From an uncultured Candidatus Saccharibacteria bacterium (lineage in GTDB: Bacteria > Patescibacteriota > WWE3 > CAZQFB01), in the NCBI GenBank assembly GCA_964592525.1, contig CAZQFB010000001.1:1212-65211 (forward strand): a stretch of 64,000 bases of DNA, in the 5' to 3' direction. Under the pieces are notes generated by a model. It made no database searches. It had not been told where the DNA came from and saw only the letters and a list, made by a program, of their open reading frames with translations. A program made the translations under genes and the position numbers. Shown here one piece after another: positions 6,214-54,961 of this stretch (the first letter of the stretch is position 1; every line of letters begins with the position of its first letter).

Positions 6214-6256
6214 GCTATTATGGCTTTATTTACGCGGATCTGCCGCAAAGGGGTAA

Positions 6257-6286: not shown

Positions 6287-6336
6287 CATTGGTGTCAAAA
6301 TGACACCAAGCGAGACATAGTGCTTCAGCTTATGAG

Positions 6337-6366: not shown

Positions 6367-6383
6367 AACACACCTTAAAGAAG

Positions 6384-6854: not shown

Positions 6855-6920
6855 GATAAAGTTACGCTCCTTGTACTTACTAACTGGTCGAGGTCTTATG
6901 TCTTCGTTATACTAAAGGCT

Positions 6921-8423
6921 ATGACCACGTTGGAAGAACTCCGTAAGGAAAGATTACAAAAATTAGCCCAGCTTCGTGAAAAAGGTATTGATCCCTATCC
7001 AGCGGAAGCAACGCGGACACATCCTTTAGCTGAAATATCCAGAAGTTATCAAGATTTGGAAAATAAAACGGTCACGGTGTGTGGTCGGATTACAGCCATC
7101 CGTACTCACGGTCAGTTATTGTTTATGGACCTTAAGGACGCGTCAGGCACCCTCCAGCTTTACCTTAAGGCTGATAATTTGGTACCACCTGATTATGCTC
7201 TATCCCAATTGGGATTTGCAGACCTTCATTTGTTAGATCGGGGGGATTTTGTTGAAAGTACCGGTTCAGTAACCCGGACCAAAACCGGAGAAATTTCGTT
7301 AGCAGTTACTAGTATTAAAATACTAACTAAGTCACTGCGACCCCTACCTAATAATTGGCACGGTTTGAAGGATACCGAAACAAGGCTCCGCCGTCGTTAT
7401 CTGGATCTGAACGTAAATGAGGATGTTTACCAGCGGTTTATTCGCCGGAGCCGGTTTTGGCAGGCGCACCGTCAGTTTTTTCAGGAGAGGGGGTTTTGGG
7501 AAATTAATATTCCCGTGTTAGAGCACATTCCTGGTGGGGCGGATGCTACTCCTTTTGTTACTCATATGGCGGCGCTTGACCAAGATTTCTATCTCCGTAT
7601 TTCACAAGAACTTTATTTGAAAAGATTAATTGGGGGTGGTTACGAAAAAGTATATGAGATTGGACCCCGTTTTCGTAATGAAGGTATTTCCGAAGAACAC
7701 CTCCCCGAGCATATAGCAATGGAATTTTATTCTGCTTATACTTCCATGACGGAAGGTATCCACATCATTAAAGATTTATTTCAGCAAATTATTGCGACCG
7801 TTTACGACGATCGTCGGCAGTTTACTATCCGTGGTGTTGCCGTTGATTTTGGCAAAGAGTGGGAAATGATTGACTATACGCAAAAAATGAAAGAAGTCTA
7901 TGGTATTGATATCTTAGATACCTCTTTAAAACAAGTCCACCCAGTGCTTGAGAAACAGGACATAAAGGTGGAGCAGCAGGAATCGTTGCCCCGTTGTATT
8001 GATAAATTGTTCAAAGAGTTGCGGAAGGAGATTGTGGGACCGGCTTTTGTGATTAATATCCCCAAGTTTTTAAGTCCTTTAGCAAAAGCATCTCCAGCCG
8101 ATGTTCGGTTAACGCAGCGATTTCAGCCAGTGATTGCTGGTTCTGAACTAGGAAATGGTTTTAGTGAGCTGAACGACCCTCTTGATCAGTTGGTGCGGTT
8201 TAAAGAGCAACAAAGTTTGCGTGATTCGGGGGATACAGAAGCCCAGTTTATGGATATTGATTTTGTAGAAATGCTAGAGTATGGCATGCCTCCCACTTTT
8301 GGTTATGGGCATAGCGAGAGGGTATTTTGGTTTCTGGAGGATATCCCAGCTCGTGAGGGGGTTCCTTTTCCCCAATTAAAAACTGATTTAGAAGAGGTGA
8401 CCAAAAGGATTTACGATTTATGA
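6921..8423 (+). CDS. lysS: Lysine--tRNA ligase (class II).
   Basis: OB-fold N-domain and class II motifs (FRNEG, GGYEKVYEIGPRFRNEG). 500 aa. Confidence 0.85.
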   Translation: MTTLEELRKERLQKLAQLREKGIDPYPAEATRTHPLAEISRSYQDLENKTVTVCGRITAIRTHGQLLFMDLKDASGTLQLYLKADNLVPPDYALSQLGFADLHLLDRGDFVESTGSVTRTKTGEISLAVTSIKILTKSLRPLPNNWHGLKDTETRLRRRYLDLNVNEDVYQRFIRRSRFWQAHRQFFQERGFWEINIPVLEHIPGGADATPFVTHMAALDQDFYLRISQELYLKRLIGGGYEKVYEIGPRFRNEGISEEHLPEHIAMEFYSAYTSMTEGIHIIKDLFQQIIATVYDDRRQFTIRGVAVDFGKEWEMIDYTQKMKEVYGIDILDTSLKQVHPVLEKQDIKVEQQESLPRCIDKLFKELRKEIVGPAFVINIPKFLSPLAKASPADVRLTQRFQPVIAGSELGNGFSELNDPLDQLVRFKEQQSLRDSGDTEAQFMDIDFVEMLEYGMPPTFGYGHSERVFWFLEDIPAREGVPFPQLKTDLEEVTKRIYDL

Positions 8424-9667
8424 TTGATCTTAAATGGTTGAAAGAACATCCGGCAGAAGTAAAACAGATGCTCGCTTTAAGAGGGGTAGTGGTGGATATT
8501 GAACGTTTAATTGCTTTGGACAATGAGCGTTTAAAAGTACTGCAAGAAATTGAGGCAATTCGGGCGCAACGCAACGTGCTAACGCAAAATGACCGTGCAC
8601 AGGGTGTGGCGTTAAGGGCACAATTAAAAGAGTTAGAGCCAAAACTTAAAGCCTTGTCCCAAGAAGTCCTGGCGTTGCACGAAAGCATTCCAAATTTGCT
8701 GCATCCAGATGTGCCCGAAGGTACGAGTGAGGCAGATAATACGTTGGTACGTAATTGGTTTCCTACTGGGGAAACACCCCAGACCTTGTCATTTAAAGCT
8801 AAGAGTCATGAAGAACTAATGACTAATCTGGGTTGGTTGGATTTAGAGCGCGGGGCCAAAGTCAGCGGGAGTGGTTTTTTTTACCTAACGAGAGAAGCGG
8901 TATGGTTAGAATTAGCGTTAATCCAGTATGTGCTTAAACTGTCGCAAGCAAAGGGGTTTATCCCAGTTATCACCCCCGAATTGGTCCGGCAAGATTATAT
9001 TGAAGGCACGGGTTATTTGCCCAAGAGAGAAGAACCGGATATTTATAAACTAGATAACGAAGATTTATACCTCATTGCCACGGCCGAGATACCTTTGGCC
9101 GCTATGCATGCGGGAGAATTACTTAGCCAGGAAGAGCTACCCCTAAAGTACATTGGCTTTTCTTCTTGCTTTCGCAAAGAATCGGGTACTTACGGGAAGT
9201 ATCGTCGTGGCATATTTCGGATGCATCAGTTTGATAAGTTGGAGATGTTTGTTTTTACCACTCCTGACCAATCAATGTTAGCCTTTAAAGAAATAATTGA
9301 GTTGGCTGAAGAGATTGTGCAAGGCTTAAAAATACCTTATCAGGTGGTTAATATTTGCGCGGGGGAAATGAATGGTCCCGGTCATCTAAAATATGATCTA
9401 AATTATTATTCACCGGTTGATAACACTTATCGCGAGTTGGGAAGTGGGACTAACACTACTGATTATCAAGCACGACGCCTAAATATTAAATATCGTACTG
9501 CTCCGGGAACAACTGAATACGTGCATACTCTTAATAACACGGCTGCGGCGATGTCTCGTTTACCCATTGCCATAATTGAGAATTACCAGCAAGCAGATGG
9601 TTCGGTATTAATACCAGAAGTGTTACAAGAGTATATTGGTTATGAGGTCATAACAGGAAAAAAGTGA
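8420..9667 (+). CDS. serS: Serine--tRNA ligase.
   Basis: N-terminal coiled-coil arm and class II core (FRKESGTYGKY, RMHQFDKLE, GSG). Overlaps the lysS stop. Confidence 0.85.
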   Translation: MIDLKWLKEHPAEVKQMLALRGVVVDIERLIALDNERLKVLQEIEAIRAQRNVLTQNDRAQGVALRAQLKELEPKLKALSQEVLALHESIPNLLHPDVPEGTSEADNTLVRNWFPTGETPQTLSFKAKSHEELMTNLGWLDLERGAKVSGSGFFYLTREAVWLELALIQYVLKLSQAKGFIPVITPELVRQDYIEGTGYLPKREEPDIYKLDNEDLYLIATAEIPLAAMHAGELLSQEELPLKYIGFSSCFRKESGTYGKYRRGIFRMHQFDKLEMFVFTTPDQSMLAFKEIIELAEEIVQGLKIPYQVVNICAGEMNGPGHLKYDLNYYSPVDNTYRELGSGTNTTDYQARRLNIKYRTAPGTTEYVHTLNNTAAAMSRLPIAIIENYQQADGSVLIPEVLQEYIGYEVITGKK

Positions 9668-10185
9668 AGATAAAACGGAAATTACCTTTAAAAGCTACCC
9701 CCAGTAAAAAATATTTATTGGTTTGGGTAGTGGCTATCTATACTGGTTCAGTGCTAGCTCAATTTGGCGGCTTTTCTGATCTATCTATGTTAGCAATCTG
9801 GGGTCTTTTATTTTCAACGGTAATTACTATCACCCATAGTTTAAAAAACCACCTTACCTCCAAAATGCAGTCTTATCATAACATACTGGTGCTTTGTATG
9901 GGTTTTACCTTTCTTTTTTCACTGCTGTATTTGGTCTTACCCCAAATGACGCAATTGTTACAGCCTTCTTTTGTTTATGCTTTATGGCATTTGGTCATGA
10001 CTATGGGGTATGCCACGATCGTCAAAATATTTAAGGATACGACGCTATTAATCTCATTATTAATTTCTTTGCTCACTCTTAGCTTATATCTGATTCCTCA
10101 ATTTATGGATCTATATCCTTTAATCTTTGGTCTTATACAAGCACCTTTGTTATTAGTGATAGGTTATATTTATTTGCATGACTGA
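9664..10185 (+). CDS. Polytopic membrane protein, function unknown.
   Basis: Multiple hydrophobic segments. Start overlaps the serS stop. Confidence 0.4.
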   Translation: MKIKRKLPLKATPSKKYLLVWVVAIYTGSVLAQFGGFSDLSMLAIWGLLFSTVITITHSLKNHLTSKMQSYHNILVLCMGFTFLFSLLYLVLPQMTQLLQPSFVYALWHLVMTMGYATIVKIFKDTTLLISLLISLLTLSLYLIPQFMDLYPLIFGLIQAPLLLVIGYIYLHD

Positions 10186-10606
10186 TTGGCTGATCTTTAT
10201 TGTGGCGGAGTATTTAATTTACTTAATTGTGTTAGCGTTACCAGTTGTTATTTGGCGTGGCGAATTGAAGTTAGCTTTACGGGGTTTTTATTCTTTAGCT
10301 TCGGCTTATTTTATTGGTTCAATAATCAAATATTTTTTTCCGGTGGCGCGACCGGTAGGTGGGGTTAGTATGCTGGAAGCTCCCGGTTCTTCTTTCCCGT
10401 CTTTACATGCAGCGATGGCTACAGCGGTAGCAGTTTCAATTTTTCTCCAACACCGAAAATATGGCACGGTTCTAATTTTATTAGCAGGGATGGTGAGTGT
10501 AGCTCGAGTATTAGCTAATGTTCATTACACGCTGGATGTTTTGGTGGGGGTTTTGATTGGGGTGGTGGCAGCGTGGTTCATCCACTTAGTGCAGTTATAT
10601 ATTTAA
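10178..10606 (+). CDS. PAP2-family phosphatase (undecaprenyl-PP or lipid phosphatase-like).
   Basis: PAP2 signature motifs KYFFPVARP (KX6RP), FPSLH (PSGH-like) and ARVLANVHYTLD (SRX5HX3D). Confidence 0.65.
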   Translation: MTDWLIFIVAEYLIYLIVLALPVVIWRGELKLALRGFYSLASAYFIGSIIKYFFPVARPVGGVSMLEAPGSSFPSLHAAMATAVAVSIFLQHRKYGTVLILLAGMVSVARVLANVHYTLDVLVGVLIGVVAAWFIHLVQLYI

Positions 10607-10609
10607 AAC

Positions 10610-11374
10610 ATGACCATCTTTCAGGCTATTATACTTGGTGTAATACAAGGGTTAACGGAGTTTTTACCGATTTCTTCTTCGGGGCATTTGATTTTGGTTT
10701 CTATTTTTTTGGGTTGGGAAGTTCAAAGTCTAGCTTTTGATGCAGCGCTTCATTTAGGGACCCTTGGTGCGTTGTTGCTTTATTTTTCTGCGCAGTTAAA
10801 GAACCAGTTACGCAACCCCCTTTTTTTACAGGTGATCTTAATTGGTACTTTACCAGCAGTGGGGTTGGGTTTGCTTTTGAATGATTATCTAGACACGGTG
10901 CTTCGCTCTCCTGTGGTGGTGGGAGTTAATCTAATTTTAATAGCTCTAGTTATGTGGTTTGTGCAGAAACGTGCGCAGTCAAATCGAGATCAGACAAAAC
11001 TTACCAAAATTGATGGTCTCGTCATTGGTCTTTATCAGGCGTTGGCTCTTGTGCCGGGGGTATCTCGCTCGGGTTCAACTATTATTGGTGGTTTACAGCG
11101 GGGCTTGACACTGCCCGAAGCTGCTTCTTTTGCTTTTTTGCTTGGTTTACCTGTAATTGCTGGGGCGGCTTTGTTTAAAGTGATTGCTTTATATTTGAGT
11201 GCTGGTTTGAGTAAGACTGACTTCGGCTTGATGGCGGTTGGTATTGCTAGTGCGGCGGTGGTTGGTTTGCTTACTATTAGATTGCTACTTAAGTATTTGG
11301 GTAGTCATTCTTTGAAAATCTTTATTGTCTACAGAATTATCTTGGGGATTATTGTGCTGTGGTTATTTAGCTAA
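10610..11374 (+). CDS. uppP: Undecaprenyl-diphosphatase (BacA/UppP).
   Basis: N-terminal GVIQGLTEFLPISSSGHL and the internal PGVSRSGSTI motif. Confidence 0.8.
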   Translation: MTIFQAIILGVIQGLTEFLPISSSGHLILVSIFLGWEVQSLAFDAALHLGTLGALLLYFSAQLKNQLRNPLFLQVILIGTLPAVGLGLLLNDYLDTVLRSPVVVGVNLILIALVMWFVQKRAQSNRDQTKLTKIDGLVIGLYQALALVPGVSRSGSTIIGGLQRGLTLPEAASFAFLLGLPVIAGAALFKVIALYLSAGLSKTDFGLMAVGIASAAVVGLLTIRLLLKYLGSHSLKIFIVYRIILGIIVLWLFS

Positions 11375-29716: not shown

Positions 29717-29745
29717 TTGTCAAAGGGGTTGCGGTGTGTTATAGT
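29717..29745 (+). promoter_or_regulatory. Sigma70-like promoter (TTGTCA, 17 nt, TATAGT) driving island genes B and C.
   Basis: ttgtca at 29717-22, a 17-nt spacer, tatagt at 29740-45. AAGGAG Shine-Dalgarno at 29782-87 with a GTG start at 29794. Confidence 0.5.
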
Positions 29746-29793
29746 CTTGATCAATTCAGCGTTCGGCTGAAAAGCCTTGATAAGGAGTATTCC

Positions 29794-30285
29794 GTGGCAA
29801 GCTTGTTTCTCACTAAGGACGTGGCGGAAGAGGCGTTGGATCTTTTCGCGGCTTTCTGGGAGTCCTTTGTGGCTTCTGGTAGGCCGAAGCGCTCGGATCT
29901 GCATGTGGTCATTCTGGATCCGACCATTAAGCCAAGCGCTCACACCTTTGATGAGGCTGTCCTCTGTGAGCGCTCCTTTGGGGATAGGGTGCTTTGGGAG
30001 CATCCCTATCGGATGATCGCTCGCGAGAAGGCAGAAGCTACTTGGCGTGAGGGAATGCCCAATGGTCGGATGTTGGCGGAGGCAGCCCCCTTGATCCAAG
30101 TAGGTGATACCCGCTGGGGGAGTGCCTACCACGGCATCCCCATTGTCGGTTGCAGTGGCGTACAGCCCTGGTTTGACGAGATGTGTGGGGCTTTGGTGTC
30201 TCATTTGTGCCGTGGTTTGGCCCAAGATGAGCGCCAAAAGTGCGAGGCAACTCTAGAGGGTAATTTCTACCACTCTGTGCTCTGA
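29794..30285 (+). CDS. Hypothetical protein (island gene B), possibly a GlcG/HbpS-like (DUF336) fold.
   Basis: From-memory resemblance to the DUF336 pattern (LHVVILDP..., IAREKAEATW, ...GIPIVGCSGVQPWFDEMCGALV). GC-rich. Strong Shine-Dalgarno. Confidence 0.35.
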   Translation: MASLFLTKDVAEEALDLFAAFWESFVASGRPKRSDLHVVILDPTIKPSAHTFDEAVLCERSFGDRVLWEHPYRMIAREKAEATWREGMPNGRMLAEAAPLIQVGDTRWGSAYHGIPIVGCSGVQPWFDEMCGALVSHLCRGLAQDERQKCEATLEGNFYHSVL

Positions 30286-30309
30286 TACCTAGCCAAAGGA
30301 GAAGAAGCA

Positions 30310-30690: not shown

Positions 30691-30696
30691 TTTCAG

Positions 30697-30733
30697 GCCC
30701 GATTGGCACAAGCCAGTCGGGCCTTTGTTCCTC
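30697..30733 (+). terminator. Hairpin (GCCCGATTGG-cacaagc-CAGTCGGGC) followed by a T-rich tract, terminating the island + strand operon.
   Basis: A 9-10 bp stem followed by CTTTGTTCCTC. Confidence 0.45.
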
Positions 30734-30780
30734 AAACCCCATAGTAGTAATCATCCTTTTTATATGGTATATTCACCTTT

Positions 30781-31353
30781 GCAGGAAGATGCACGGTCGC
30801 TGTTTTTTGTCATTAGGTTTTAGTGGTTAGGTTCTAGTAGGATTTCCTAAATTAAGGGACCTGCCATGTGAAGCCTTTCACCCTCCTTAGTTTTTGCGAA
30901 GAAGGGGTGGCGAAGGATGGAGGAAAGTCCAGACAGCATAGAGCAAGGGGTCGGGCCGTAAGTCCCGATGCGTAAGCACTGGTGTCTCTTTTCCGAAAGG
31001 AAAAGAGGATAGAGAGGGCATCAACCCTTTCTAAGACCCACAGAGACAATACGAGACCTAAGGCATTAGCTATGGTCAAAAGGTGAAAAGCCATGAACCA
31101 CATCAGGTTCTAGTTAAGGGAATCCCACCCGCTGCAATCCACGACCCTGCCGATGAAAGGCTGCTCGTCATGGGATCGCTTTTGTGATCAATCGGTAGAA
31201 AGTTGGAGCATTAGATAGATGACCGTTACCCAGCTCTTGGTAGCTGACACCCCACTTCGTTCGCCTTTGGCGAACTTTGAAGAGGTTAAGCACCGCTAAG
31301 AACGCCTTGCGTTCAAGAGTTGCTAAACAGAATCTGGCTTACTCTTCCCGCTC
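30781..31353 (+). ncRNA. rnpB: RNase P RNA (bacterial type A). The confident core is about 30905..31353; the 5' end is uncertain.
   Basis: Universally conserved AGGAAAGUCC (30921-30930) and 3' ACAGAAUCUGGCUUA (31327-31341). The P4 pseudoknot covaries with E. coli (GUCCAGA/UCUGGC versus GUCCGGG/CCCGGC). GGUGAAAAG (31084-31092) is an L13/L14-like GNRA-type loop motif. The extended -10 at 30765-30773 and a candidate P1 (GCAGGAAGA/UCUUCCCGC) suggest a long 5' region. Confidence 0.75.
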
Positions 31354-31359
31354 AATGAA

Positions 31360-31398
31360 GACCAGGCTCCCCGCCGAATTGGCGGGGAGCCTCTGGTC
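31360..31398 (+). terminator. GC-rich hairpin (GACCAGGCTCCCCGCC-gaatt-GGCGGGGAGCCTCTGGTC) immediately after rnpB.
   Basis: A 16-bp stem with a 2-nt bulge. No U-tract, so possibly a processing or termination hairpin. Confidence 0.4.
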
Positions 31399-31495
31399 AA
31401 ATTAGTGCGCTGACCCTTTGTCCCCGGTATTAAAAATTTTCAGGAAAAAGTTATTTAGCTTGTTTTAGAGGGGATGTTTTCTTAGGCAGCTGATA

Positions 31496-35928: not shown

Positions 35929-36332
35929 CGGTGACTAGGGTTAGAAGATTCTTGGTCAGGTGCAGCATCTATTTCTGGTAAGGTGGTGTCTGGTTCTTCT
36001 GTGGTTTTGCTGGTTAAGGAATTAAGTAATTGTTTAAAAATGCTACCATCTTTTTTTAGTGTTTGAGACACTCTCACCACTGTAGTGGTGCTCACTTCAG
36101 CTTCTCCCGCGACACTTCGTACATCCATACCCGAATGTAATAACCGAGCAATATACCATCTTTTTTTAATCATCCTTATTTCCGAGGGGGTGAGCAGTTC
36201 TGCCAGGAACTTTTTGCCGTCTTGAGAATCTTGACAGATCTTAGCTAGTTGATCAAAAAAGACGAAGGTTTCTTTAATGTATCTTTCGTGGTTGAGATCT
36301 TCTTGTGGTTTGGACATTGTATGTATTAACAC
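35904..36332 (-). CDS. TrpR-like / YerC-YecD family small DNA-binding protein.
   Basis: About 140 aa with a C-terminal HTH (MDVRSVAGEAEVSTTTVVRVSQTLKK). Confidence 0.4.
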   Translation of the reverse strand: MLIHTMSKPQEDLNHERYIKETFVFFDQLAKICQDSQDGKKFLAELLTPSEIRMIKKRWYIARLLHSGMDVRSVAGEAEVSTTTVVRVSQTLKKDGSIFKQLLNSLTSKTTEEPDTTLPEIDAAPDQESSNPSHRYSFGYDE

Positions 36333-36368
36333 ACACCAGGTGTTCCGGTGTCAAGGCTTTTTAACACA

Positions 36369-36392
36369 AAACCCCGCCAAGAGGCGGGGTTT
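36369..36392 (-). terminator. Rho-independent terminator for hup (AAACCCCGCC-aaga-GGCGGGGTTT).
   Basis: A 10-bp GC-rich stem, followed on the minus strand by TTTGTGTT. Confidence 0.6.
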
Positions 36393-36412
36393 GTGCTTTA
36401 CAAATCAAGGTT

Positions 36413-36685
36413 TTAACGGACAGTGTCCTTAAGACCTTTACCTGCTTTGAAGTGGGGCACTTTAGTTGCAGGAATGTGAATTGGTTCTCCCGTCTGGGGG
36501 TTGCGACCCATACGTGCCTGGCGACTGCGGACTTCAAAAGTACCGAAACCAGTGATGGTTACTTTGTCACCTTTGGCTAAAGCAGCACCAATGGCATCCA
36601 GCATTGATTCTAGGGCACGTCCAGCATCAGCCTTGGTCAAACCAACTTGGCTGGCTACGCGATCAACTAAATCGACTTTTGTCAT
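36413..36685 (-). CDS. hup: DNA-binding protein HU.
   Basis: 90 aa with canonical HU motifs (GFGTFEVRSR...RNPQTGE). Confidence 0.9.
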   Translation of the reverse strand: MTKVDLVDRVASQVGLTKADAGRALESMLDAIGAALAKGDKVTITGFGTFEVRSRQARMGRNPQTGEPIHIPATKVPHFKAGKGLKDTVR

Positions 36686-36730
36686 TTAGATTCACCCCCT
36701 TTCATAAGTTCTTTTAGCACAAGACTCAAT

Positions 36731-46286: not shown

Positions 46287-46661
46287 TTATTTAAGTAGTA
46301 GGTACGACTGATACACAACCAGAAAAGCACTTAAAATAATTAATAAGACAAATATAATTTGGCAAGTATTAAATATTCCTGTCCGTTCCCTTCTAATGTT
46401 TTGTGAAGTCTGTTTTTCTTCTTGGAAATATCTTTTAAAAATCTGACTTGCCGCTTCGTGGCTGAAACTTTTTAACATAAGCCTTATGGTAACTAACCAG
46501 GATAGACACATAAGTACTATATAATCTAGTTTTACGGTTGGTGCTCTTAATAAAACGTAATATGTAAAAGTTACTGCCAAAAAAAGTAACAAGATTAGAT
46601 AATATCTTGGGGCTTGCTGAAGCACTTTATGGGGAAATAGCCTTTTTAGATAATTAGTCAT
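46287..46661 (-). CDS. Small polytopic membrane protein, unknown.
   Basis: Three hydrophobic helices. Confidence 0.35.
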   Translation of the reverse strand: MTNYLKRLFPHKVLQQAPRYYLILLLFLAVTFTYYVLLRAPTVKLDYIVLMCLSWLVTIRLMLKSFSHEAASQIFKRYFQEEKQTSQNIRRERTGIFNTCQIIFVLLIILSAFLVVYQSYLLLK

Positions 46662-46669
46662 ATGTTTAT

Positions 46670-47287
46670 TTAATTATTAGGGTTACGCTTGAGAAGCTTT
46701 GCAGCATTATTATTTGGAGTAGCCTTTCCCACGCGACAACTAATGAGCGCCTCGTTGTAAGGTTGACAGAGGTCGTGAACTACTTTTAACGACGTTTGTG
46801 GGTTAAGGTAAAGCGACTCATCGCTGGGTTTAAGAATAATGGGCATTCGGTTATGGATTGGCTTGACGGTATCGTTAGCAGCGCAAGTTAGAATACTAAA
46901 TTCATTTTGTTCATAAATACCGGCAAAGGAACAAGGTTTGTTTTGTGGCAGACTAATATAATAAGGCTGCTTACCGTGGGTTGTTTTCTGCCACTCATAA
47001 AAACCATTGTTTGGGACTAGACATCTGTTGTGAGCAAACAATTTATTAAAGTGTTCTTTTTCTAAAACTGTTTCACTTCTAATGTTTATTAATAAAGTGC
47101 GCTGGTTTCCCCAGGATACCGCTAAGCCCCATTTTTTGAAATTAACTTTGTGATCAATAGTATTGGTGATTATGGGCATGAGCATTGTTGGGGTGACATT
47201 ATAATTTTTTTCAAGTGGCGGGAGTTTTTTTAAATTAAAACGCATCGCAAAATCATCGTTGGGAATAAATACATAGCGACCACACAT
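46670..47287 (-). CDS. SOS-response-associated peptidase (SRAP/YedK, DUF159).
   Basis: Starts MCGRY (catalytic Cys2). The ATG overlaps the upstream stop (TAATG). Confidence 0.7.
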   Translation of the reverse strand: MCGRYVFIPNDDFAMRFNLKKLPPLEKNYNVTPTMLMPIITNTIDHKVNFKKWGLAVSWGNQRTLLINIRSETVLEKEHFNKLFAHNRCLVPNNGFYEWQKTTHGKQPYYISLPQNKPCSFAGIYEQNEFSILTCAANDTVKPIHNRMPIILKPSDESLYLNPQTSLKVVHDLCQPYNEALISCRVGKATPNNNAAKLLKRNPNN

Positions 47288-48480
47288 TAAAACTCTTCCT
47301 CCAACAGATTCCATAATTCATCTTGATCGCCATCGTAGCCTAAGGCCCAGATACCTATGCCCCCTAATCCCCAGTCTTTAGCGAGATGGTATTTGCTTTG
47401 AAGCGATTTTACATCTTCGTAATGACATTGACGGTAGATTTCTTTTTCCTCATCGTAAAACACAAACCAAGGAGATTGAGCATCTTCATCCCACCTTTTT
47501 GCCTCGCCCTTGTTTTCTGGATGATAAGCGCAACCTTTGTAGTACTGAATATTGGAATAACCTATTGCTTCGTTACCAGGGACTCGGAAGCTTCCAAGCG
47601 TGTCATTTTCAGTGATCCAGTAATGACCGTAGTAAGCGACTCCCAGAATTAATTTATTCTTGTCGATAAATCTAGCGTAATCATTGAGCATGGTAATTAA
47701 ATCGTAGCGAAATTTATCTGGTGCTCCCCCAATTGGCGCTAGCGGACCAGTTTGCTCTTCGCTTAGCTGATGAAAGTCATAGGACATAATAAAGAGTTTA
47801 TCCACTACACTGGAGAGTTCGGCGATATTGTGAAGGCGGTTTCTTTGAGCAGAATTAGCGTGAGCATCTACGGTGACGATACCTCGGGGGTAAACATTGT
47901 GCACTTGATGGGTAAAAAGGGTTACAAACTCGGTAAAATTACTTCTGACCAAGTTGGGTGTAATACCGCTCCATTCAAAATCAAGGTTGAGGTTAGCGAC
48001 TTTCTTTTCCGCCATTTCGTTTAAAGTGTTTCGGATAAGAGTATTCCAACAGGTTGGGCAGTTTAAGAAAGATTCAATGGTGTTGTTATCTTGCATCACG
48101 ACCGCTAGCGATACCCTGACCTCATGTCTTTTTGCGTTGCTGATTACTCTTTCTAGATTAGTGCTTTTTTTCCAGTTCAACCAGCCCAGTTCACTAGTCC
48201 CGTCTTCCTGGAGCTTAATAAATTCTCCTGTTTCATCTATGTGCAGACCAAAATAGACAATTTCATCTACTGCTTGATATCTAATAAATTCAGAGTTAGC
48301 TAACATCCAATAGGGTAGAAAACCAATTACCTCTTGTGTTAGAGCCTCACCTTTTTCTAGTGTTTCAGCTTCAGGGGATAATATTTCTTGGGAGCGCTGC
48401 TCATTATTTTGAGCTGCTAATTCTAACCCCACGCCGATAGTAAATATCACTGTGGCTGTGAGGAAGATAATTTTTTTCAT
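47287..48480 (-). CDS. Secreted GH18-like (chitinase/YaaH-like) domain protein.
   Basis: Signal peptide. (beta/alpha)8-like layout. A partial GH18 catalytic motif, NLNLDFEW, in place of DGxDxDWE. Confidence 0.4.
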   Translation of the reverse strand: MKKIIFLTATVIFTIGVGLELAAQNNEQRSQEILSPEAETLEKGEALTQEVIGFLPYWMLANSEFIRYQAVDEIVYFGLHIDETGEFIKLQEDGTSELGWLNWKKSTNLERVISNAKRHEVRVSLAVVMQDNNTIESFLNCPTCWNTLIRNTLNEMAEKKVANLNLDFEWSGITPNLVRSNFTEFVTLFTHQVHNVYPRGIVTVDAHANSAQRNRLHNIAELSSVVDKLFIMSYDFHQLSEEQTGPLAPIGGAPDKFRYDLITMLNDYARFIDKNKLILGVAYYGHYWITENDTLGSFRVPGNEAIGYSNIQYYKGCAYHPENKGEAKRWDEDAQSPWFVFYDEEKEIYRQCHYEDVKSLQSKYHLAKDWGLGGIGIWALGYDGDQDELWNLLEEEF

Positions 48481-48551
48481 CTCAAGGATTAATTATAAAC
48501 AAGAAAGCCCGAAAAATACGGGCTTTCTTTTCTTTGCGCCTAAAACTTTAG

Positions 48552-48971
48552 TTATTTATTTCTACTCTTGACTTCAATGCGCTTTGGTTTCTCTTCTTCT
48601 GCTTTAGGGATAATTACCTTAACCACTCCATTTTCCACTTCGGCAGTAGCCTGGTCCGACCTTACGCTGCGAGGTAAGGTAGTTGAGTAGTGGAAAGAGC
48701 GTTGTTCCATTTTTTTGTAGTACTGCTTGCCTTTTTCTTTTTGCTCATCTTTTTCAGTGACTTCCCCTCGGATAGTAATTACTCCTCCCTCAACATTAAT
48801 TTCAATGTCTTCCTCCTTAATTCCTGGAACGTTTGCCTCAACGACAATATCATTATCCGTTTCGTAGAGATTTAATGCCTCGTTGGTTCCCCCCCACCAT
48901 TCGGCGTCGTCCCAGAGCGGAAAGCGCTGCCAGGGTCTTAAAGATAAAGGCTCCCATCGAACAAGTGCCAT
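48552..48971 (-). CDS. Hsp20 / alpha-crystallin small heat-shock protein.
   Basis: 139 aa with an alpha-crystallin domain (...NVPGIKEEDIEINVEGGVITIRGE...). Confidence 0.8.
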   Translation of the reverse strand: MALVRWEPLSLRPWQRFPLWDDAEWWGGTNEALNLYETDNDIVVEANVPGIKEEDIEINVEGGVITIRGEVTEKDEQKEKGKQYYKKMEQRSFHYSTTLPRSVRSDQATAEVENGVVKVIIPKAEEEKPKRIEVKSRNK

Positions 48972-49204
48972 GTGACACCTCCTTTCTCAATAAACATAAC
49001 TTCCTTAAAAGGCTTAACTTCTTAGGCTATTCCGTTTTCATTGGGGCAGCCAAGAAATTAGCCTATTAGCAATATATTAGTAAGAGTGACAGTTGTCAAG
49101 GGTGTTAAGGAAGTTAATACCGAAAAGAATTTTACATTTTATTATGGTTGATTTATTCTAGGAACAAAGCAATAGGTTACTACCAACTAAAGGGGTGGGT
49201 CGAG

Positions 49205-50347
49205 ATGCGTTCTTTAACAATCGAGCAAGAACTCAAGTTGTACCTGCTAGCGTGTGGGGTCAAAATTGACCCTAAAGCAGAGAAAGAATGGCTTAGAAGA
49301 TATGGCGGTCCCTTGAGTTTGAGTGAGTATGCTTCCACCAGCGGTATTTGTCTACTAATGGCTTCGGGTGATTACATCAACGCTCCTTTTATTGAGTTCT
49401 TCACACAGGCTACCAAAGCCCTTCTTTCCTATGAGGAAGAGTTCTTTATTCTCATGGGTGCTGTGCGTTTTCCTGTCACTGTTATTCCTGTTCCTGGGTA
49501 CCACCAACAAACTTATGCGGATGGGGGTAGGGTTTATTCCTACACTAACTTAGGAGTTACTCATACTGATCGTTGTAGGGTATCTCCAGTTGAGGGATGC
49601 TCTTGGGTTTGTACCTTTTGTGATATGCCTTACAACTATAGATACAGATTGAAGCCAGAAAGAGAATTGTTAAGGGTTATTGAATTGGCTAAGGACGATC
49701 CTTTTTCACCTGCAAGACATGTTCTTGTGAGTGGGGGTACCCCCAAACCAGAAGATTATAAATGGTGGGATTCTGTGGTTGAATATCTCGCACAGAATTC
49801 ACCCCTACCAGTAGATGTGATGATGGCTGCTCGAACGGATATGGGAGAACCGCGTTGGTTGCGTTCTGTGGGTGTGAACATGCTTTCAGTAAACTTGGAA
49901 GTATGGGATACTGCACGGAGCTTAAAGATCACTCATAATAAGGCGCGAATATTAGGTAGAAGGTGCTACCTTGATTTTATTGAAAGAGCGGTAGAGTCTT
50001 TCGGTGTTGGTTTTGTCCAATCTCTTTTGGTTTTTGGTGAGGCTGTGGAGCCCATAGAAAGTACTCTAGAGGGTGTTAGGGCTTTAGTAGACAGAGGATG
50101 TATTCCCGTGCTTAGCCCATTCAGACCTAACCAGTCTACACCGATGGGTAAGGAATCTCCTGCCAGTATAGAGGAGATGAAAGAGGTATACATAGAGGCT
50201 ACTCAATTGTGTGAAAAGAGCGGATTAGGTATTAGACCTGGACCTCGTTGTATCCCCTGCCAACATAATGTAGTTGCTTTTTGCGAAGACTTGGGTTTTT
50301 ACGTTCCTATGGAGGAGAGCCTAACCGACAGAGAATGGCAGCATTGA
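49205..50347 (+). CDS. Radical SAM protein, function unknown.
   Basis: CxxxCxxC motif (GCSWVCTFCDMPY). The start is chosen at MRSLTIEQ, with AGGGGTGG upstream. The track ORF begins at 49148. Confidence 0.55.
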   Translation: MRSLTIEQELKLYLLACGVKIDPKAEKEWLRRYGGPLSLSEYASTSGICLLMASGDYINAPFIEFFTQATKALLSYEEEFFILMGAVRFPVTVIPVPGYHQQTYADGGRVYSYTNLGVTHTDRCRVSPVEGCSWVCTFCDMPYNYRYRLKPERELLRVIELAKDDPFSPARHVLVSGGTPKPEDYKWWDSVVEYLAQNSPLPVDVMMAARTDMGEPRWLRSVGVNMLSVNLEVWDTARSLKITHNKARILGRRCYLDFIERAVESFGVGFVQSLLVFGEAVEPIESTLEGVRALVDRGCIPVLSPFRPNQSTPMGKESPASIEEMKEVYIEATQLCEKSGLGIRPGPRCIPCQHNVVAFCEDLGFYVPMEESLTDREWQH

Positions 50348-51282
50348 AAACAAGCAAGATTATCAGTATTAACGATATAAATAGAGTTGAGATAGAGCAA
50401 CTCATTGATCGTGCAAATCAATTGCGGGAGGAGCGCTTCAGGCGCTACCTCCCGCCTTTCATTATGGGTTTGTTTTTCTTTCAGGAGTCTACTCGTACGC
50501 AAATTGGTTTTCAGGCAGCTGCTTATAGATTGGGGGGTCAAGTTTTTACATTTAAAAACACGAAATATCAATCAAACATGTCGTCAGCCGAAAGTCTTGC
50601 GGATTCTATCAAGGTATTAGAATCATATGCAGATGTGCTCTGCATAAGGCATTTTGATGACAGTATATTTTCTGATCTGTTTAGATCGATTAGTAAGCCT
50701 GTTGTAAACTGTGGTAATGGTTTTGATGAGCATCCTACCCAAACCCTGACCGATCTATACATGATTAAGGATACACTAGGCAATATAGATAATCTGACTA
50801 TTGCTCTTGTTGGAGATCTTCGGCATATGCGCACTTCTCATTCCTTGTTGCTTGGTCTATCGAAATTTAATCGGATTTCGGTGATATGTGTGTCTCCTAA
50901 AGAGCTTAGAATGCCTGATCGCTATAAAAATGTGTACGGAAAAACACCAAATAATCTCAAGGAGATAAATGACTTGAATCTTCAGGGTGTTGATGTAGTG
51001 TATATGGCAGGATTTGCCCCCAAGACACCTATAGGAGACTATGATGCTGATATTAGAGAAAAATATAGTTTAAGAGGAAAGTCTTTTTTATCACTAGTTA
51101 AACCCCCAATTATTATGTGTCCTCTTCCTCGTGTAGATGAAATTGATCCCACCTTAGACCAAACACCTTATTCAAAATATTTTAAGCAGAGTGCGTTGGG
51201 CTTATACACCAGAATGGCTTTACTTGAATTTATTTTAGCTCCAAAAGGAGAGAATATTTACAATGTTGGGGGGTTGAATTGA
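50335..51282 (+). CDS. Aspartate/ornithine carbamoyltransferase-fold protein with variant active-site motifs.
   Basis: STRTQ (canonical STRTR), HPTQ, GDLRHMRTSHSL (ATCase-like) and CPLPR (canonical HPLPR). About 315 aa from MAALK. Confidence 0.6.
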   Translation: MAALKTSKIISINDINRVEIEQLIDRANQLREERFRRYLPPFIMGLFFFQESTRTQIGFQAAAYRLGGQVFTFKNTKYQSNMSSAESLADSIKVLESYADVLCIRHFDDSIFSDLFRSISKPVVNCGNGFDEHPTQTLTDLYMIKDTLGNIDNLTIALVGDLRHMRTSHSLLLGLSKFNRISVICVSPKELRMPDRYKNVYGKTPNNLKEINDLNLQGVDVVYMAGFAPKTPIGDYDADIREKYSLRGKSFLSLVKPPIIMCPLPRVDEIDPTLDQTPYSKYFKQSALGLYTRMALLEFILAPKGENIYNVGGLN

Positions 51283-52119
51283 ACTATTTATTACAGACAA
51301 GTCTGCTTATACCGGTGGAAGCAGGTTCTTGTTAGAAAATTAATAACACTAAGAGTCCCGTTTCAATATTAGAAGAGTGGCTTTTTGATGTTAGATTATT
51401 ATCTAAAATTGTTCTGGGAAAAGTTGTGAGGGGACTATCGGGAGATATTTATTATAAGGTGCTTTAGTCCTTAGTCTGTGGTGCAATGGGTAATAAAGCA
51501 TTGCTGTGAACATTGAATTTGAGCAAAAGGGGAAATAATATTTAGTTTAGAAGTAGTTTTGTATAACTACGAGTTATTAGGTGTTAGCTTTTGTATAGAA
51601 TAAATTTATTAGATTAACCTTTTAACATATCTAAGATCTGCCACCTTGGGGATGGGTACATTTTCAGTCTCGATTGGTGATTATATATTGTTTCAGGTGG
51701 TGGGTATCAAAATGTCCGCGGTGTTAAAAATATCTAATAAAAAAACAGCGTATTAAGTATGTTTACAGAAGTTTTCATCAGAGGGTCTTTTTTACTGTGG
51801 TTAGATTATAGAAATCGGGATCATAAGGTTTCTGATAATCTTTAACCCATCTCCTTAGCTGGTAATTTGTGTCTCGGGATGCTTTAGATTGTTGGATATA
51901 TGCCTTTGGATTTAAGCCGCATCAGCCCGAACCTCTCTATCGAGTATTATTGAAAGTGATCGTGATTAGAATAAATAATTAAACTACAGTCGCGTAATTT
52001 ACACGAGCTGACCATATAAAATCAAAAGTAGAATAAATATCTATAAATTTAGAGTAATTTCAAGAAAGTCTAGTCGCGAAGAGTAGTTAAAGAATCTTAT
52101 TTTTTCCAAGAAGCATTAA

Positions 52120-53454
52120 TCAACTCAAAATACTTGATGAAATATTATCTGCTTCTACTAAGACTTTTCTATTCAAATCCTCTTGCGCACTCCCTACTTC
52201 CACCACAGCCCCAATATATCCGTCAATGAATATTGAGCCTTTTGTTGGGTATGTTGATAGATATTTACCTTTTCCAGGATTAAATATCTTTTGCACATTT
52301 CCTTTAGCTAATTCCTTAATTATTATTTGACCAGGTTCGTAAGGTTTTATTTTTACGTGTGCCCAGGAAGAAGGATATTGGATTTTTGCATAATCTAGGT
52401 CTTGTTCTATTTTATTATCAGTAACGCATGCGAGTTCTATATCCGTCAGGTTAACTCCTAAAGCGCTTAATGCTAGAGCATTACATTCATAACCTCCTTG
52501 TCGACGTGGGTTTAAATCCACTATTACTAACCTCCCCTTTTTATCTATCAAAAAATCACAACCAAAAAGACCCCTGTAACCCATCTTAGATAGGTAGTTA
52601 CCGATTTTATTAGTTATTTCCAAGATCTGGTTGTGATGATTGTTAGAAATTTTTGTAGGATAATAATTTCCAAGGTATTTGTTGCCTCTCATAATCTGAT
52701 CCGAAACTACTAATGGATATGTTTTATTCAATCCTGTTACCACTGCATTAACATTAGGCATTGCTCTAACATGGTTCATAATTGTAGCTACAACAAAACC
52801 TTTTTCTTGATTAACATTTCTCAATTTGGATAAGAAAGTGTTTAGCATCTCCTTGCTATATATTAAACCACTTTCTGCTCCTCCAGAGGTATAGGATGCC
52901 GTTATATAACCCGGATACACGTTATTTTTAGATAGTAATTCATTGGAGTCTTTATATATTTTCGCTTTGTTGAATGGGAGTTTTAATTTTCGAAACAACT
53001 TATAATGTTCGATTTTATTATCAAGAAAGGTAGCGATTTTATTGTTAGGACCTAACGTTAACCAGTAAGGTTCTTTCAGGTCTAAGAAAGAGGTGGTAAA
53101 AGGATAGACAGGAATAATACCTTGCTTTTTACTTAATTTTGATGCTATTTCATTAATAATTGGTTCGTGTAAAAATTCCTTATTGAGGTCTTCGTATTCC
53201 TGCACATACACAACAGGATTTTTCAATGACCTTTCAACCTCACTTGCTCCGCGGTTAATTACAATGTAGCTATCTGAAGAAAACCACTTGTTTGGAGTAA
53301 ACGAATATATATTTATAGGTTTAAATGGGACATTATAGAGAGAGGAAAGAGACGTAGCCATCATTTCATTCATAGCATCAAATCTTGGTCCCAATAATGA
53401 AAAGAAATAATGGTACTTATTTGTGAATAAATCTTTATCTAATTTCATTAACAT
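52120..53454 (-). CDS. ATP-grasp domain protein (RimK/ligase-like), function unknown.
   Basis: C-terminal ATP-grasp core (GYRGLFGCDFLIDKKGRLVIVDLNPRRQG). Visibly AT-rich coding sequence. Confidence 0.55.
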   Translation of the reverse strand: MLMKLDKDLFTNKYHYFFSLLGPRFDAMNEMMATSLSSLYNVPFKPINIYSFTPNKWFSSDSYIVINRGASEVERSLKNPVVYVQEYEDLNKEFLHEPIINEIASKLSKKQGIIPVYPFTTSFLDLKEPYWLTLGPNNKIATFLDNKIEHYKLFRKLKLPFNKAKIYKDSNELLSKNNVYPGYITASYTSGGAESGLIYSKEMLNTFLSKLRNVNQEKGFVVATIMNHVRAMPNVNAVVTGLNKTYPLVVSDQIMRGNKYLGNYYPTKISNNHHNQILEITNKIGNYLSKMGYRGLFGCDFLIDKKGRLVIVDLNPRRQGGYECNALALSALGVNLTDIELACVTDNKIEQDLDYAKIQYPSSWAHVKIKPYEPGQIIIKELAKGNVQKIFNPGKGKYLSTYPTKGSIFIDGYIGAVVEVGSAQEDLNRKVLVEADNISSSILS

Positions 53455-53567
53455 ACCACTACGTACCTTAATACCTTCCTGGCGTCAGTCAGTTTTTATA
53501 CCCTAAAGATTATCATAACTGTAATATTACCAGCAGGCGAATTCCGTAAGGGGGTATATTATTGATG

Positions 53568-53639
53568 AGGCGCGGACGGGAATTGAACCCGTGAAAAACG
53601 GTTTTGCAGACCGTTGCATTACCATTCTGCCACCGCGCC
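53568..53639 (-). tRNA. tRNA-Cys (anticodon GCA).
   Basis: Manual fold. Acceptor GGCGCGG/CCGCGCC. A 3-bp D-stem, typical of tRNA-Cys. Anticodon stem ACGGT/ACCGT with loop CTGCAAA. T-arm ACGGG-TTCAATT-CCCGT. Discriminator U. CCA not encoded. Confidence 0.8.
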
Positions 53640-53845
53640 CCGCTCCTTCTTTATTATTTTGATGTTTTGTTATCTGTAATACCCCTCTACTTATAGTTGA
53701 GCATTTACCCTGCTCGTGCTAGAAAGAGCGGGGTAATCTCCTTAAATACCGGTTCGGGTTTTGTATACACATCACCAGTCCATAAAACATCAAAAAACCG
53801 CGAGATCAGTGGTTATACTAGCAGAAATGTGGTAGTTTTTAAACC

Positions 53846-54961
53846 ATGCGTAGAATAATTTTTGTTTTGCTTAGCCTAGTGCTTCTGCTTTCAGGAGCAT
53901 ATCTTATCTATAACAACCTTTATGTTAAGAAAAATCAGAAAGATTACGCTTCTTTATCAGTTAACACCCCGTATGCTGATGCTGGTGTCTTTTTTGGTGA
54001 AGAGTATTTAGGTCCAACGCCCTTTTATAGAGATGATTTGGCTGCTGGTAATGTTGAGTTAAGAGTAGGTGATTGGGCGGGCACCATCAATTTGCCACCA
54101 AACACATTAACTGTGGTCAATCAAGATTTGGGTCCCGCTTTATATACAGGTGGAGATATTATTTGGCCTGAAAAGACACCCGGAGAGATCTCGGTGGCTT
54201 TTATTTCCGAACCAGATGGTGCTTTTGTCAAAATAGATGGGGAAGATAAAGGCGAAACACCCTTGAGGGTGTCTGATATTTCACTTGGGGAGCATAAGGT
54301 TGAAATTACTAAAAAAGGGTATGTGGACAGGGAAGTCCGCATTCGTTTACAAGAGGATTGTAAACTTAATGTTAGTTCTAACCTAATGAAGAGCCCTCTT
54401 CCGGAGGAGATTAAGTTAATGGAAACAGCCGTAGAAAACCTGACTTGGTATGATTTTAGAACCGAAGAGCAAAGATTATACGGTGCCATGGAAGAATGGT
54501 TAAAGGGTTTAGCCTTCTTTTTCAAAAGTTACGGTTTTAATTCTGAACATAAACCCGATTATTTTGTGTCTACTTCTGGAAATGTTTATTCTCTTACAGG
54601 TGAGCTGCTATCTTTAGAAAACTATGCTGGTAAGCATACCTTACCATTAGTAATCGGGTATTTGGGTGAAAGTGGGCAAGAGGAGATAAGCCCAGAAGCG
54701 CTGACAGCCGTTACGGCAATGTTAAGCAAAGAAGGTAGCACCCCACCCGTTGTAGCTATTTCTAGTAAGGTTAAAATTTTACCAACTGGCATGGGTTGGC
54801 TTCGGGTTAGAAGTGGTCCTGGTTTAGGTTATGAGGAGGTTCAAAAGGTTAATGAAGGAGAAGAATATTCTCTTTTAGAAGAACAATCTGGTTGGGTTAA
54901 GATCAAAGTAGCTGAAGATGTTGAAGGCTGGGTCTCAAGTCAATTTACCGAAAAAATATAG
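53846..54961 (+). CDS. PEGA-domain and SH3b-like domain membrane-anchored protein.
   Basis: N-terminal transmembrane segment. PEGA core (SEPDGAFVKIDGEDKGETPL). C-terminal SH3-like region (GWLRVRSGPGLGYEEVQKVNEGEEYSLLEEQSGWVKI). Confidence 0.55.
   Translation: MRRIIFVLLSLVLLLSGAYLIYNNLYVKKNQKDYASLSVNTPYADAGVFFGEEYLGPTPFYRDDLAAGNVELRVGDWAGTINLPPNTLTVVNQDLGPALYTGGDIIWPEKTPGEISVAFISEPDGAFVKIDGEDKGETPLRVSDISLGEHKVEITKKGYVDREVRIRLQEDCKLNVSSNLMKSPLPEEIKLMETAVENLTWYDFRTEEQRLYGAMEEWLKGLAFFFKSYGFNSEHKPDYFVSTSGNVYSLTGELLSLENYAGKHTLPLVIGYLGESGQEEISPEALTAVTAMLSKEGSTPPVVAISSKVKILPTGMGWLRVRSGPGLGYEEVQKVNEGEEYSLLEEQSGWVKIKVAEDVEGWVSSQFTEKI

Follow-up and report, generated by a model that had tools for sequence, protein, structure and literature searches.

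A patchily distributed radical SAM, ATCase-like and ATP-grasp gene cassette beside tRNA-Cys in an uncultured Candidatus Saccharibacteria bacterium

The window analysed here is a stretch of 64,000 nucleotides of contig CAZQFB010000001.1, from an uncultured Candidatus Saccharibacteria bacterium of the candidate phyla radiation (CPR), and its subject is a compact cassette encoding a radical S-adenosylmethionine (SAM) enzyme, an aspartate carbamoyltransferase (ATCase)-like protein and an ATP-grasp enzyme. An open reading frame (ORF) listing, a tRNA scan and Pfam searches located every element that a first-pass annotation of this DNA had described, at or near the same positions, with a gap of 837 rather than 830 bp between the ATCase-like and ATP-grasp genes (Table 1). 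The radical SAM ORF opens with a TTG at 49148, and the ATG at 49205 is the start that matches the N-termini of homologous proteins. The ATCase-like gene begins 13 nt inside the radical SAM gene, and the 3' end of tRNA-Cys points at the start of the ATP-grasp gene across 112 bp.

Table 1. Features of the cassette locus, in coordinates of the 64,000-nt window
Feature	Position	Strand	Length	Basis and remarks
Radical SAM gene	49205-50347	+	380 aa	Pfam and NCBIfam scans, AF2 model
ATCase-like carbamoyltransferase-fold gene	50335-51282	+	315 aa	OTCace_N 120 bits, OTCace 51 bits
Non-coding gap	51283-52119		837 bp	Longest ORF at most 37 aa; 16-27 stops per frame
Decayed NadE-like PP-loop ATPase remnant, inside gap	51336-51955	+		Frameshift-tolerant alignment
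ATP-grasp gene	52120-53454	-	444 aa	Pfam ATP-grasp_3; convergent with the radical SAM and ATCase-like genes
tRNA-Cys(GCA)	53567-53639	-		ARAGORN, Rfam; right-hand neighbour of the cassette
Segment without counterpart in the closest syntenic relative	48481-53845			Between GH18 gene and PEGA/SH3 gene

Comparison across genomes indicates that these three genes belong together. Scanning one genome per species produced 80 loci, and tblastn with ORF clustering gave a non-redundant set of 68 loci whose radical SAM protein is at least 35.5% identical to that of the window. The ATCase-like gene is present at 58 of the 68 and the ATP-grasp gene at 60, most loci without the latter being truncated contigs; both partners accompany the radical SAM gene in 54. 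The arrangement of the window, with the radical SAM and ATCase-like genes running towards a convergent ATP-grasp gene, recurs in Saccharimonadia and in the nearest metagenomic relatives, and in a metagenome-assembled genome of the Mycobacteriales all three genes follow one another, in that order, as one operon. An exhaustive profile search uncovered natural fusions of the radical SAM protein to an OTCace domain (P0366) and to a NAD_synthase domain (P0376), together with about 16 ATP-grasp-radical SAM fusion proteins of 750-800 aa, so that radical SAM is found joined to each of its two partners and also to a PP-loop ATPase. The pairwise distances of the three proteins are moreover correlated (Mantel r 0.34-0.62, p<=0.004), and the three genes of the window carry all family-invariant residues. 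The grouping proposed in the first-pass annotation thus stands: the radical SAM, ATCase-like and ATP-grasp genes are one conserved unit, serving a single pathway.

The carriers of this unit are widely scattered. They include CPR bacteria, the DPANN lineages Aenigmatarchaeota and Woesearchaeota, Methanosarcinales, the Thermoanaerobaculia and Holophagales within the Acidobacteriota, many Actinomycetota (among them Mycobacterium szulgai, M. angelicum and Solirubrobacter deserti), Desulfovibrionales, and Alpha- and Gammaproteobacteria. The core trio is also modified at some loci. A LysA-like, pyridoxal phosphate (PLP)-dependent decarboxylase takes the place of the transcarbamylase in L001/L008 (the closest Patescibacteria genome), L046, L048 and L052. 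Accessory genes within the 68 loci encode a BluB/FbiB-like nitroreductase (26 loci), a FAD oxidoreductase (11), a NadE-like PP-loop ATPase (4) and a second radical SAM enzyme resembling RaSEA (3).

The radical SAM enzyme, recognised as such in the first-pass annotation by its CSWVCTFC motif, is securely identified by motif, Pfam score and fold. The motif follows the CX3CX2C pattern, its cysteines (C132, C136 and C139) are invariant in the family alignment, and the protein scores 41.5 bits against Pfam Radical_SAM (PF04055; cut-off 29.5), which places it in the superfamily. Its AlphaFold2 (AF2) model is of high confidence (pLDDT 91) and contains a full radical SAM core, preceded by an N-terminal alpha/beta domain of about 125 aa and followed by a C-terminal segment in which C336, C349, C352 and H354 are invariant among aligned homologues; these four residues may mark the site of an auxiliary cluster or a metal. 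A SPASM domain was not detected. Profile searches found no solved relative, and Foldseek matched the model to generic radical SAM cores at TMq values of at most 0.47, with NifB, RlmN, HydE, PylB (structure 3t7v) and LIAS all equally weak.

Among curated models, the nearest are NF045502 (variant_rSAM), which aligns over almost the full length, and TIGR04043 (the MSMEG_0568 family), which aligns to the C-terminal half. The window protein scores 105.1 bits against a cut-off of 125 for the former and 44.2 against 303.7 for the latter; family members tested against NF045502 score between 94 and 123 bits, and every tested member of the cassette family falls below the cut-offs. On these scores, we assign the enzyme to an unnamed family related to NF045502 and TIGR04043. 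The family is rare, amounting to 216 clusters at 50% identity (E<=1e-30) among the 1.84 billion representatives covered by the exhaustive profile search. Many homologues at 50-67% identity were recovered, often on short contigs shared with ATCase-like homologues. Searches of plasmid, phage and viral-contig collections with the radical SAM protein gave no matches, and fold matches in BFVD were generic only. More distant radical SAM relatives (34-35% identity) in Lachnospiraceae (L075-L078) and Ca. Contendobacter (L082/L083) lie, over positions ~1-11000 of those loci, in a different conserved cluster of seven to eight genes without ATCase-like or ATP-grasp genes, the two tested members of which had no match in Pfam.

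The second enzyme has ATCases as its closest solved relatives, at 37-41% identity (M. jannaschii 2rgw, E 2e-55). We aligned its 120 best database homologues to E. coli ATCase and tabulated the residues at functional positions. The homologues split cleanly into 53 canonical ATCases, all keeping S80, K84, R229, Q231, R234 and H265, and 67 variant proteins, including that of the window. The variant group retains the carbamoyl-phosphate ligands S52, R54, T55, R105, H134 and Q137 as well as R167, but has lost conservation at S80 and K84 and carries R229G (100%), Q231P/A, R234T and H265C. In the window protein the carbamoyl-phosphate site is complete, with STRT starting at residue 52, HPTQ at 133, and R105, H134 and Q137 in place, and the substitutions are K84 to S, R229 to G, Q231 to A and R234 to T; its S80 is retained, though this position is unconserved across the subfamily. 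The first-pass annotation had reported altered carbamoyl-phosphate-site motifs. The literal changes exist, STRTR reading STRTQ and HPLP reading CPLP (R56Q is present in bona fide ATCases too), but the carbamoyl-phosphate ligands are kept and the diagnostic changes fall in the aspartate site and the 80s loop.

Because the variant subfamily has near-invariant residues of its own (G58 100%, an inserted M82 99%, C127 94% and G229 100%, in addition to N129, D132 and M166), this pattern of conservation indicates selection for a different substrate or a new function rather than decay. The loss of K84, R229 and Q231, with S80 unconserved in the subfamily, also leads us to conclude that the protein is most unlikely to be PyrB: the residues that would recognise the aspartate side chain are absent, and R167, the ligand of the alpha-carboxylate, is kept. 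The suggestion that this gene lies outside pyrimidine synthesis is borne out by replacements at the aspartate site in a pattern common to 67 of 120 homologues.

A genuine but divergent PyrB with coincidental neighbours would explain why the best PDB and NCBIfam matches are ATCases and why the Joint Genome Institute (JGI) annotation labels subfamily members as ATCase catalytic subunits. We give this explanation hardly any credence, the lowest of those weighed here. True ATCases of equal identity keep all the aspartate-site residues; the protein scores below the ATCase equivalog cut-offs (TIGR00670, 216.6 against 236.95; NF002032, 208 against 263); and its gene is tightly linked to the radical SAM gene, by overlap and occasionally by fusion. 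Searches of the window with the cassette and accessory proteins, a query set that left aside other pyrimidine genes, returned no second carbamoyltransferase. The genuine-PyrB reading thus fails where it should be strongest, on the aspartate-site residues and on the equivalog scores. Nor is the protein an ornithine carbamoyltransferase (OTCase): it scores 105 against 281 for TIGR00658, and of the ornithine-binding motifs DxxxSMG and HCLP it has neither the SMG nor the HCLP, with CPLP in place of the latter. The JGI label, 'aspartate carbamoyltransferase catalytic subunit', is attached to P0006, P0023, P0027, P0029, P0030 and other members of the variant subfamily, and in reduced genomes it is likely to give rise to false pyrB calls.

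For the ATP-grasp enzyme, the AF2 model (pLDDT 94.6) has a three-domain, biotin-carboxylase-like architecture that Foldseek superposes over its full length on biotin carboxylases (TMq 0.60-0.67, 12-15% identity). Profile searches against the PDB ranked the amino-acid ligase BesA first (6e-14), followed by the carbamate-phosphorylating domain of E. coli carbamoyl-phosphate synthetase (CPS; residues 658-846, 3.5e-9) and by biotin carboxylases at 1e-6 and weaker. By these profile matches, the nearest characterised relative is BesA, an L-propargylglycine-L-glutamate ligase.

These similarities leave room for another assignment, in which the ATP-grasp enzyme would serve as a minimal synthetase of carbamoyl phosphate, or of carboxyphosphate, and feed the transcarbamylase, providing a private carbamoylation system for CPR cells lacking carbamoyl phosphate. 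The full-length biotin-carboxylase/CPS-like fold, the rank of the CPS carbamate-phosphorylating half in the profile search and weak Pfam matches to CPSase_L_D2 all agree with it. We nonetheless hold it to be improbable because the ATP-grasp gene tracks the radical SAM gene and not the transcarbamylase gene: it stays with radical SAM where the transcarbamylase is absent or replaced (L001, L018, L045, L046, L048 and L052), and it is to radical SAM, not to the transcarbamylase, that ATP-grasp is fused. The best characterised relative, moreover, is an amino-acid ligase.

The gap between the ATCase-like and ATP-grasp genes yielded little to ordinary tools, tblastn with 1,054 neighbour proteins returning only noise and Pfam on its six frames nothing. 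In L012 (Uhrbacteria) and L015, however, a gap of the same size and at the same position is filled by an intact gene for a NadE-like PP-loop ATPase of 274-279 aa, on the strand of the ATCase-like gene. We compared these proteins with the gap by a custom local protein-to-DNA alignment that allows frameshifts, using 150 dinucleotide shuffles and 285 proteins of similar length as controls. On the plus strand the L012 and L015 proteins score 94 and 76, against 39 +/- 6 (maximum 58) for the shuffles, and a third PP-loop homologue scores 60 against 36 +/- 5; on the minus strand PP-loop scores are at the null level. The two proteins rank first and second among the 285 controls (mean 36, standard deviation 7.7, next best 65), although the reverse-strand tail of the controls reaches 74, so the L015 score alone is borderline. 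The traceback places PP-loop residues 20-236 colinearly on the remnant listed in Table 1, with 64 identities in 224 columns, 5 stops and 7 frameshifts, and relics of three motifs can be read: GLSGDIYY for SGGxDS, VHFQSRLV for MHLRSRLV and VSGC for DSGCP. Taken together, the score of the L012 protein, the concordance of three homologues, the restriction of the signal to one strand and the matching position identify the gap as the decayed remnant of a fourth cassette gene, encoding a NadE-like PP-loop ATPase. A decayed pseudogene at this place had been named in the first-pass annotation as a finding that would tell against the cluster; one is indeed what the alignments point to, but it adds a fourth member to the cassette and does not undermine the cluster.

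A 3379-bp contig from Logan accession SRR11845623 (L090) is identical base for base to window positions 49373-52751, the whole gap included, which means that the pseudogene is no artefact of a single assembly; as L090 is not necessarily an independent sample, it carries no independent evidence on the gap itself. The gap is lineage-specific, since the ATCase-like and ATP-grasp genes abut in the closest relatives L087, L089 and L007. A structural RNA was also considered for this region and rejected: at E<=1, Rfam reported only the neighbouring tRNA over positions 48900-54000, and folding z-scores were -0.8 and +0.8. Peptide-coding ORFs in the gap were likewise discarded as candidates, none exceeding 37 aa and none being conserved.

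The first-pass annotation had seen in this gap a potential home for precursor peptides and, in the combination of enzymes, a possible link to peptides made on the ribosome and modified after translation (RiPPs) of the graspetide type, the ATP-grasp and radical SAM enzymes modifying a peptide encoded in or near the gap. Such a system has some precedent, in that certain RiPP clusters encode both an ATP-grasp and a radical SAM enzyme and CPR bacteria do have graspetide clusters (PMC8939145), and the extra N-terminal domain of the radical SAM enzyme, of unassigned role, could be counted in its favour. Yet in 50 loci the 450 bp around the ATP-grasp gene hold no homologous small ORFs (35-140 aa), a gap is missing altogether from the closest relatives, the ATP-grasp enzyme appears, from its nearest profile and fold matches, to be of the biotin carboxylase/BesA type, and the radical SAM enzyme shows no SPASM domain. 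The gap, as a dead cassette gene, is therefore not a home for precursor peptides. We regard the RiPP reading as largely refuted and its probability as very small, as it fails on its defining feature, a conserved precursor-peptide gene.

The block also has the marks of an accessory element. In L093, which by GroEL (67% identity) is the closest relative available and nevertheless distant, the order GroES-GroEL-GH18(-)-PEGA(+)-...-598-aa-UbiA-like is kept, with 73 bp between the GH18 and PEGA genes against 5.4 kb in the window. The inserted segment comprises a small heat-shock-like gene (48552-48971, identified by eye), the cassette and tRNA-Cys. The nearest homologues of the cassette lie in unrelated phyla. 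In line with the first-pass suggestion of an island, the absence of the block from L093 and the very patchy phyletic distribution show the cassette to be an accessory, laterally acquired element. Searches of metagenomes with the PEGA protein for close relatives found none.

The adjacency to tRNA-Cys had been taken as typical of islands, and it is real, as is the presence/absence difference from L093 between conserved flanks, but a classical tRNA-integrated island is not supported. The 23-mer at the tRNA-Cys 3' end has no second copy in the window with up to three mismatches allowed, and no repeat family includes it; no integrase was found among the six flanking window proteins scanned, a subset of the window's ORFs. 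The tRNA-Cys gene is thus not demonstrably an integration site. At L154 (15588-15662), tRNA-Cys(GCA) lies directly upstream of a PEGA/SH3 homologue, in the opposite orientation to that in the window and with no cassette, so the linkage of tRNA-Cys to PEGA may predate the cassette. In some relatives, an integrase or serine recombinases lie beside the compact cassette.

Base composition was likewise said to set the ATP-grasp gene and the gap apart as strikingly AT-rich. The ATP-grasp gene is low in GC (0.334, z = -2.1, second lowest among 54 genes with a mean of 0.415 and a standard deviation of 0.039, in a window of 0.416), a genuine if moderate departure, and the gap, at 0.332, is ordinary for intergenic DNA in the window. 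The radical SAM gene, at 0.445, lies slightly above the gene average. Elsewhere in the window, three intergenic stretches of 586-805 bp (29724-30309, 30691-31495 and 35929-36730) are unusually GC-rich for this genome (0.55, 0.48 and 0.44), and Rfam returned nothing for them at gathering thresholds. Between the GroEL and GH18 genes, positions 46287-47314 hold a 124-aa ORF with the lowest GC of the 54 genes (0.315) and a SRAP-family gene; neither has a counterpart at that position in L093, and this flank may be accessory too.

Larger versions of the cassette bring in a second set of genes. An nSTAND1 NTPase with pentapeptide repeats occurs in 31 of the 68 loci and a protein of about 700 aa, here called X707, in 24, often between the ATCase-like and ATP-grasp genes; the carriers are Actinomycetota, Acidobacteriota and some Proteobacteria. 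Pfam finds SIR2_2 in 7 of 23 X707 members and TIR_2 in 5 of 23, and the X707 profile matches SIR2 NADases of defence systems such as KomC. The nSTAND1 domain was defined in counter-invader systems (Kaur et al. 2021, PMC8195603). In a Mycobacteriales copy (L003/L004) the cluster sits among GmrSD, an N6/N4 methyltransferase, an AbiJ-TIR protein and a 1,780-aa DEAD/MZB helicase, and at L091 it adjoins a CHAT protease. Positions 1-7800 and 11800-17128 of L003/L004 form a dense conflict island, which also contains an RHS/YD-repeat toxin.

From these associations it is conceivable, although we think it rather unlikely, that the trio is the metabolic arm of an undescribed immune or conflict system, with the nSTAND1 NTPase as sensor or switch and a SIR2/TIR NADase-type protein as effector. 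In this reading the enzymes would make or process a small-molecule signal or toxin upon infection, the CPR/DPANN version, that of the window included, being stripped down to the enzymes. Besides the genomic neighbourhoods just described, the patchy distribution, which fits horizontal transfer, speaks for such a role. Against it, homologues of the STAND and SIR2/TIR genes are missing from the window, when searched with the accessory proteins, and from all CPR/DPANN loci; none of the three enzymes has a match in PADLOC-DB v2.0.0 (2023) at E<=0.01; the flanks of compact cassettes contain recombinases and housekeeping genes with no obvious enrichment in defence genes; and neither relatives in phage, plasmid and viral-contig collections nor an experimental link to phage connects the enzymes to infection.

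The interpretation that we favour, with a confidence only a little above even, is that the locus is a horizontally spread, self-contained enzyme cassette for making or modifying an amino-acid-derived small molecule, serving neither pyrimidine or arginine synthesis nor a RiPP. The best-supported version of it is a pathway of three enzymes, ancestrally four, acting on a free amino-acid-like molecule. The radical SAM enzyme would first carry out a 5'-deoxyadenosyl-radical step on a substrate resembling an amino acid, for instance a rearrangement or a C-C/C-H reaction; the ATCase-like enzyme would transfer the carbamoyl group of carbamoyl phosphate to a free amino group of the intermediate, giving a ureido compound; and the ATP-grasp enzyme, as BesA does, would activate a carboxylate as acyl phosphate and join it to an amine, giving an amide or dipeptide-like product. 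Other lineages would swap or add tailoring steps, namely PLP-dependent decarboxylation by the LysA-like enzyme instead of carbamoyl transfer, amidation by the NadE-like enzyme, oxidation or reduction by the flavin oxidoreductases, and a second radical step by the RaSEA-like enzyme. RaSEA acts on a lysine adduct. Because the transcarbamylase and the LysA-like decarboxylase are interchangeable, a RaSEA-like enzyme occurs in some loci and R167 is retained, the scaffold of the product is most plausibly a diamino acid of the ornithine, lysine or diaminopimelate (DAP) type. The product is probably used in conflict between organisms.

Several observations weigh against this small-molecule pathway. 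All of its chemical steps are deduced from superfamily membership, and the radical SAM enzyme, by profile and Foldseek searches, has no specific likeness to any characterised enzyme. No source of carbamoyl phosphate was identified within the 64 kb of this genome. Since the PP-loop gene has decayed in this genome, its pathway could be a departure from the four-gene version or a degenerate form of it. Beside the compact cassette no gene for transport or resistance is conserved, which weakens the picture of an exported antimetabolite, and the association with STAND and SIR2/TIR genes that larger genomes show would be easier to reconcile with signalling or immunity than with classical secondary metabolism. 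The small-molecule and immune-arm readings are compatible, however, and in either setting a metabolite used in conflict could be the product. Joined in this way, they give a picture that we put forward as speculative: the trio would be the core of new immune or conflict systems in which a carbamoylated amino-acid-derived metabolite serves as signal or toxin; it would work together with an nSTAND1 NTPase and an NAD+-degrading SIR2/TIR effector in free-living bacteria, and would stand alone in episymbiotic CPR and DPANN organisms.

Whichever role applies, the reassignment of the second gene removes the apparent paradox of a lone 'ATCase' in a CPR-type genome, the protein not being a pyrimidine enzyme. 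Where ATCase serves as the marker for de novo nucleotide synthesis, PyrB labels on the variant subfamily can mislead a metabolic reconstruction. The cassette is rare, occurs in both prokaryotic domains and comes with strong Rosetta-stone evidence for a single pathway. Its radical SAM enzyme and transcarbamylase, without a characterised match, make it a good target in the search for new radical and carbamoyl-transfer chemistry, and its interleaving, in Actinomycetota, Acidobacteriota and Proteobacteria, with nSTAND1 and SIR2/TIR genes raises the possibility of a new class of metabolite-linked immunity. Cultured carriers, namely Mycobacterium szulgai, M. angelicum, Solirubrobacter deserti, Fundidesulfovibrio agrisoli, Roseospira navarrensis and Pseudolysinimonas yzui, make these ideas testable.

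Set against known systems, the individual enzymes and the cassette as a whole show partial likenesses. The literature searched, which did not cover all journals and so may miss a prior description, contained no account of the cassette; the three enzymes pass no NCBIfam model, and PADLOC has none for any of them. Ophion, which combines a radical SAM enzyme with PHP and PRTase proteins, was considered and is a different system. PyrB (M. jannaschii 2rgw, E. coli 1d09) shares the fold, the carbamoyl-phosphate ligands, R167 and the PLPR motif with the second enzyme, which differs at K84, R229, Q231, R234 and H265 (here C) and has a radical SAM neighbour and no pyr context. BesA (PDB 8yi6, NF042917), from the beta-ethynylserine pathway, resembles the ATP-grasp enzyme over the catalytic core and in length, and also acts on a free non-proteinogenic amino acid, as the cassette enzyme is predicted to do; about 110 residues align significantly, the score is 37 bits against an equivalog cut-off of 750, and the partner enzymes are entirely different. 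STAND and SIR2/TIR immune modules (Avs-like, KomC) have counterparts embedded in 24-31 of the 68 related loci but absent from the window and from compact CPR/DPANN cassettes, and none described in the literature searched couples radical SAM, ATCase-like and ATP-grasp enzymes.

At the level of pathways, two comparisons are instructive. VioL and PadQ are transcarbamylase paralogues that carbamoylate diamino acids, and tabtoxin (TabA/TblS/TabS) and phaseolotoxin are made by Trojan-horse dipeptide pathways. The cassette may share with these systems an OTCase/ATCase-fold enzyme or LysA-like decarboxylase, a PP-loop amide-forming enzyme and an ATP-grasp enzyme working on ornithine, lysine or DAP, a likeness of toolkit rather than of sequence membership; the cassette is set apart by its radical SAM family, and no exporter or self-resistance gene was seen in it. 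In the PylB/PylC/PylD system of pyrrolysine biosynthesis a radical SAM enzyme remodels a basic amino acid and an ATP-grasp ligase forms an amide, with the participation of an oxidoreductase. The cassette radical SAM enzyme is no closer to PylB than to NifB, RlmN, HydE or LIAS (TMq ~0.45), PylC is Ddl-like as opposed to the biotin carboxylase/BesA-like ATP-grasp enzyme of the cassette, and the cassette has a transcarbamylase or decarboxylase and no Pyl-tRNA context. By analogy, the overall logic nevertheless appears similar, that of a compact, horizontally transferred cassette without a precursor peptide, and we describe the present locus as an uncharacterised cassette, serving biosynthesis or conflict, whose enzymes belong to new subfamilies within known superfamilies.

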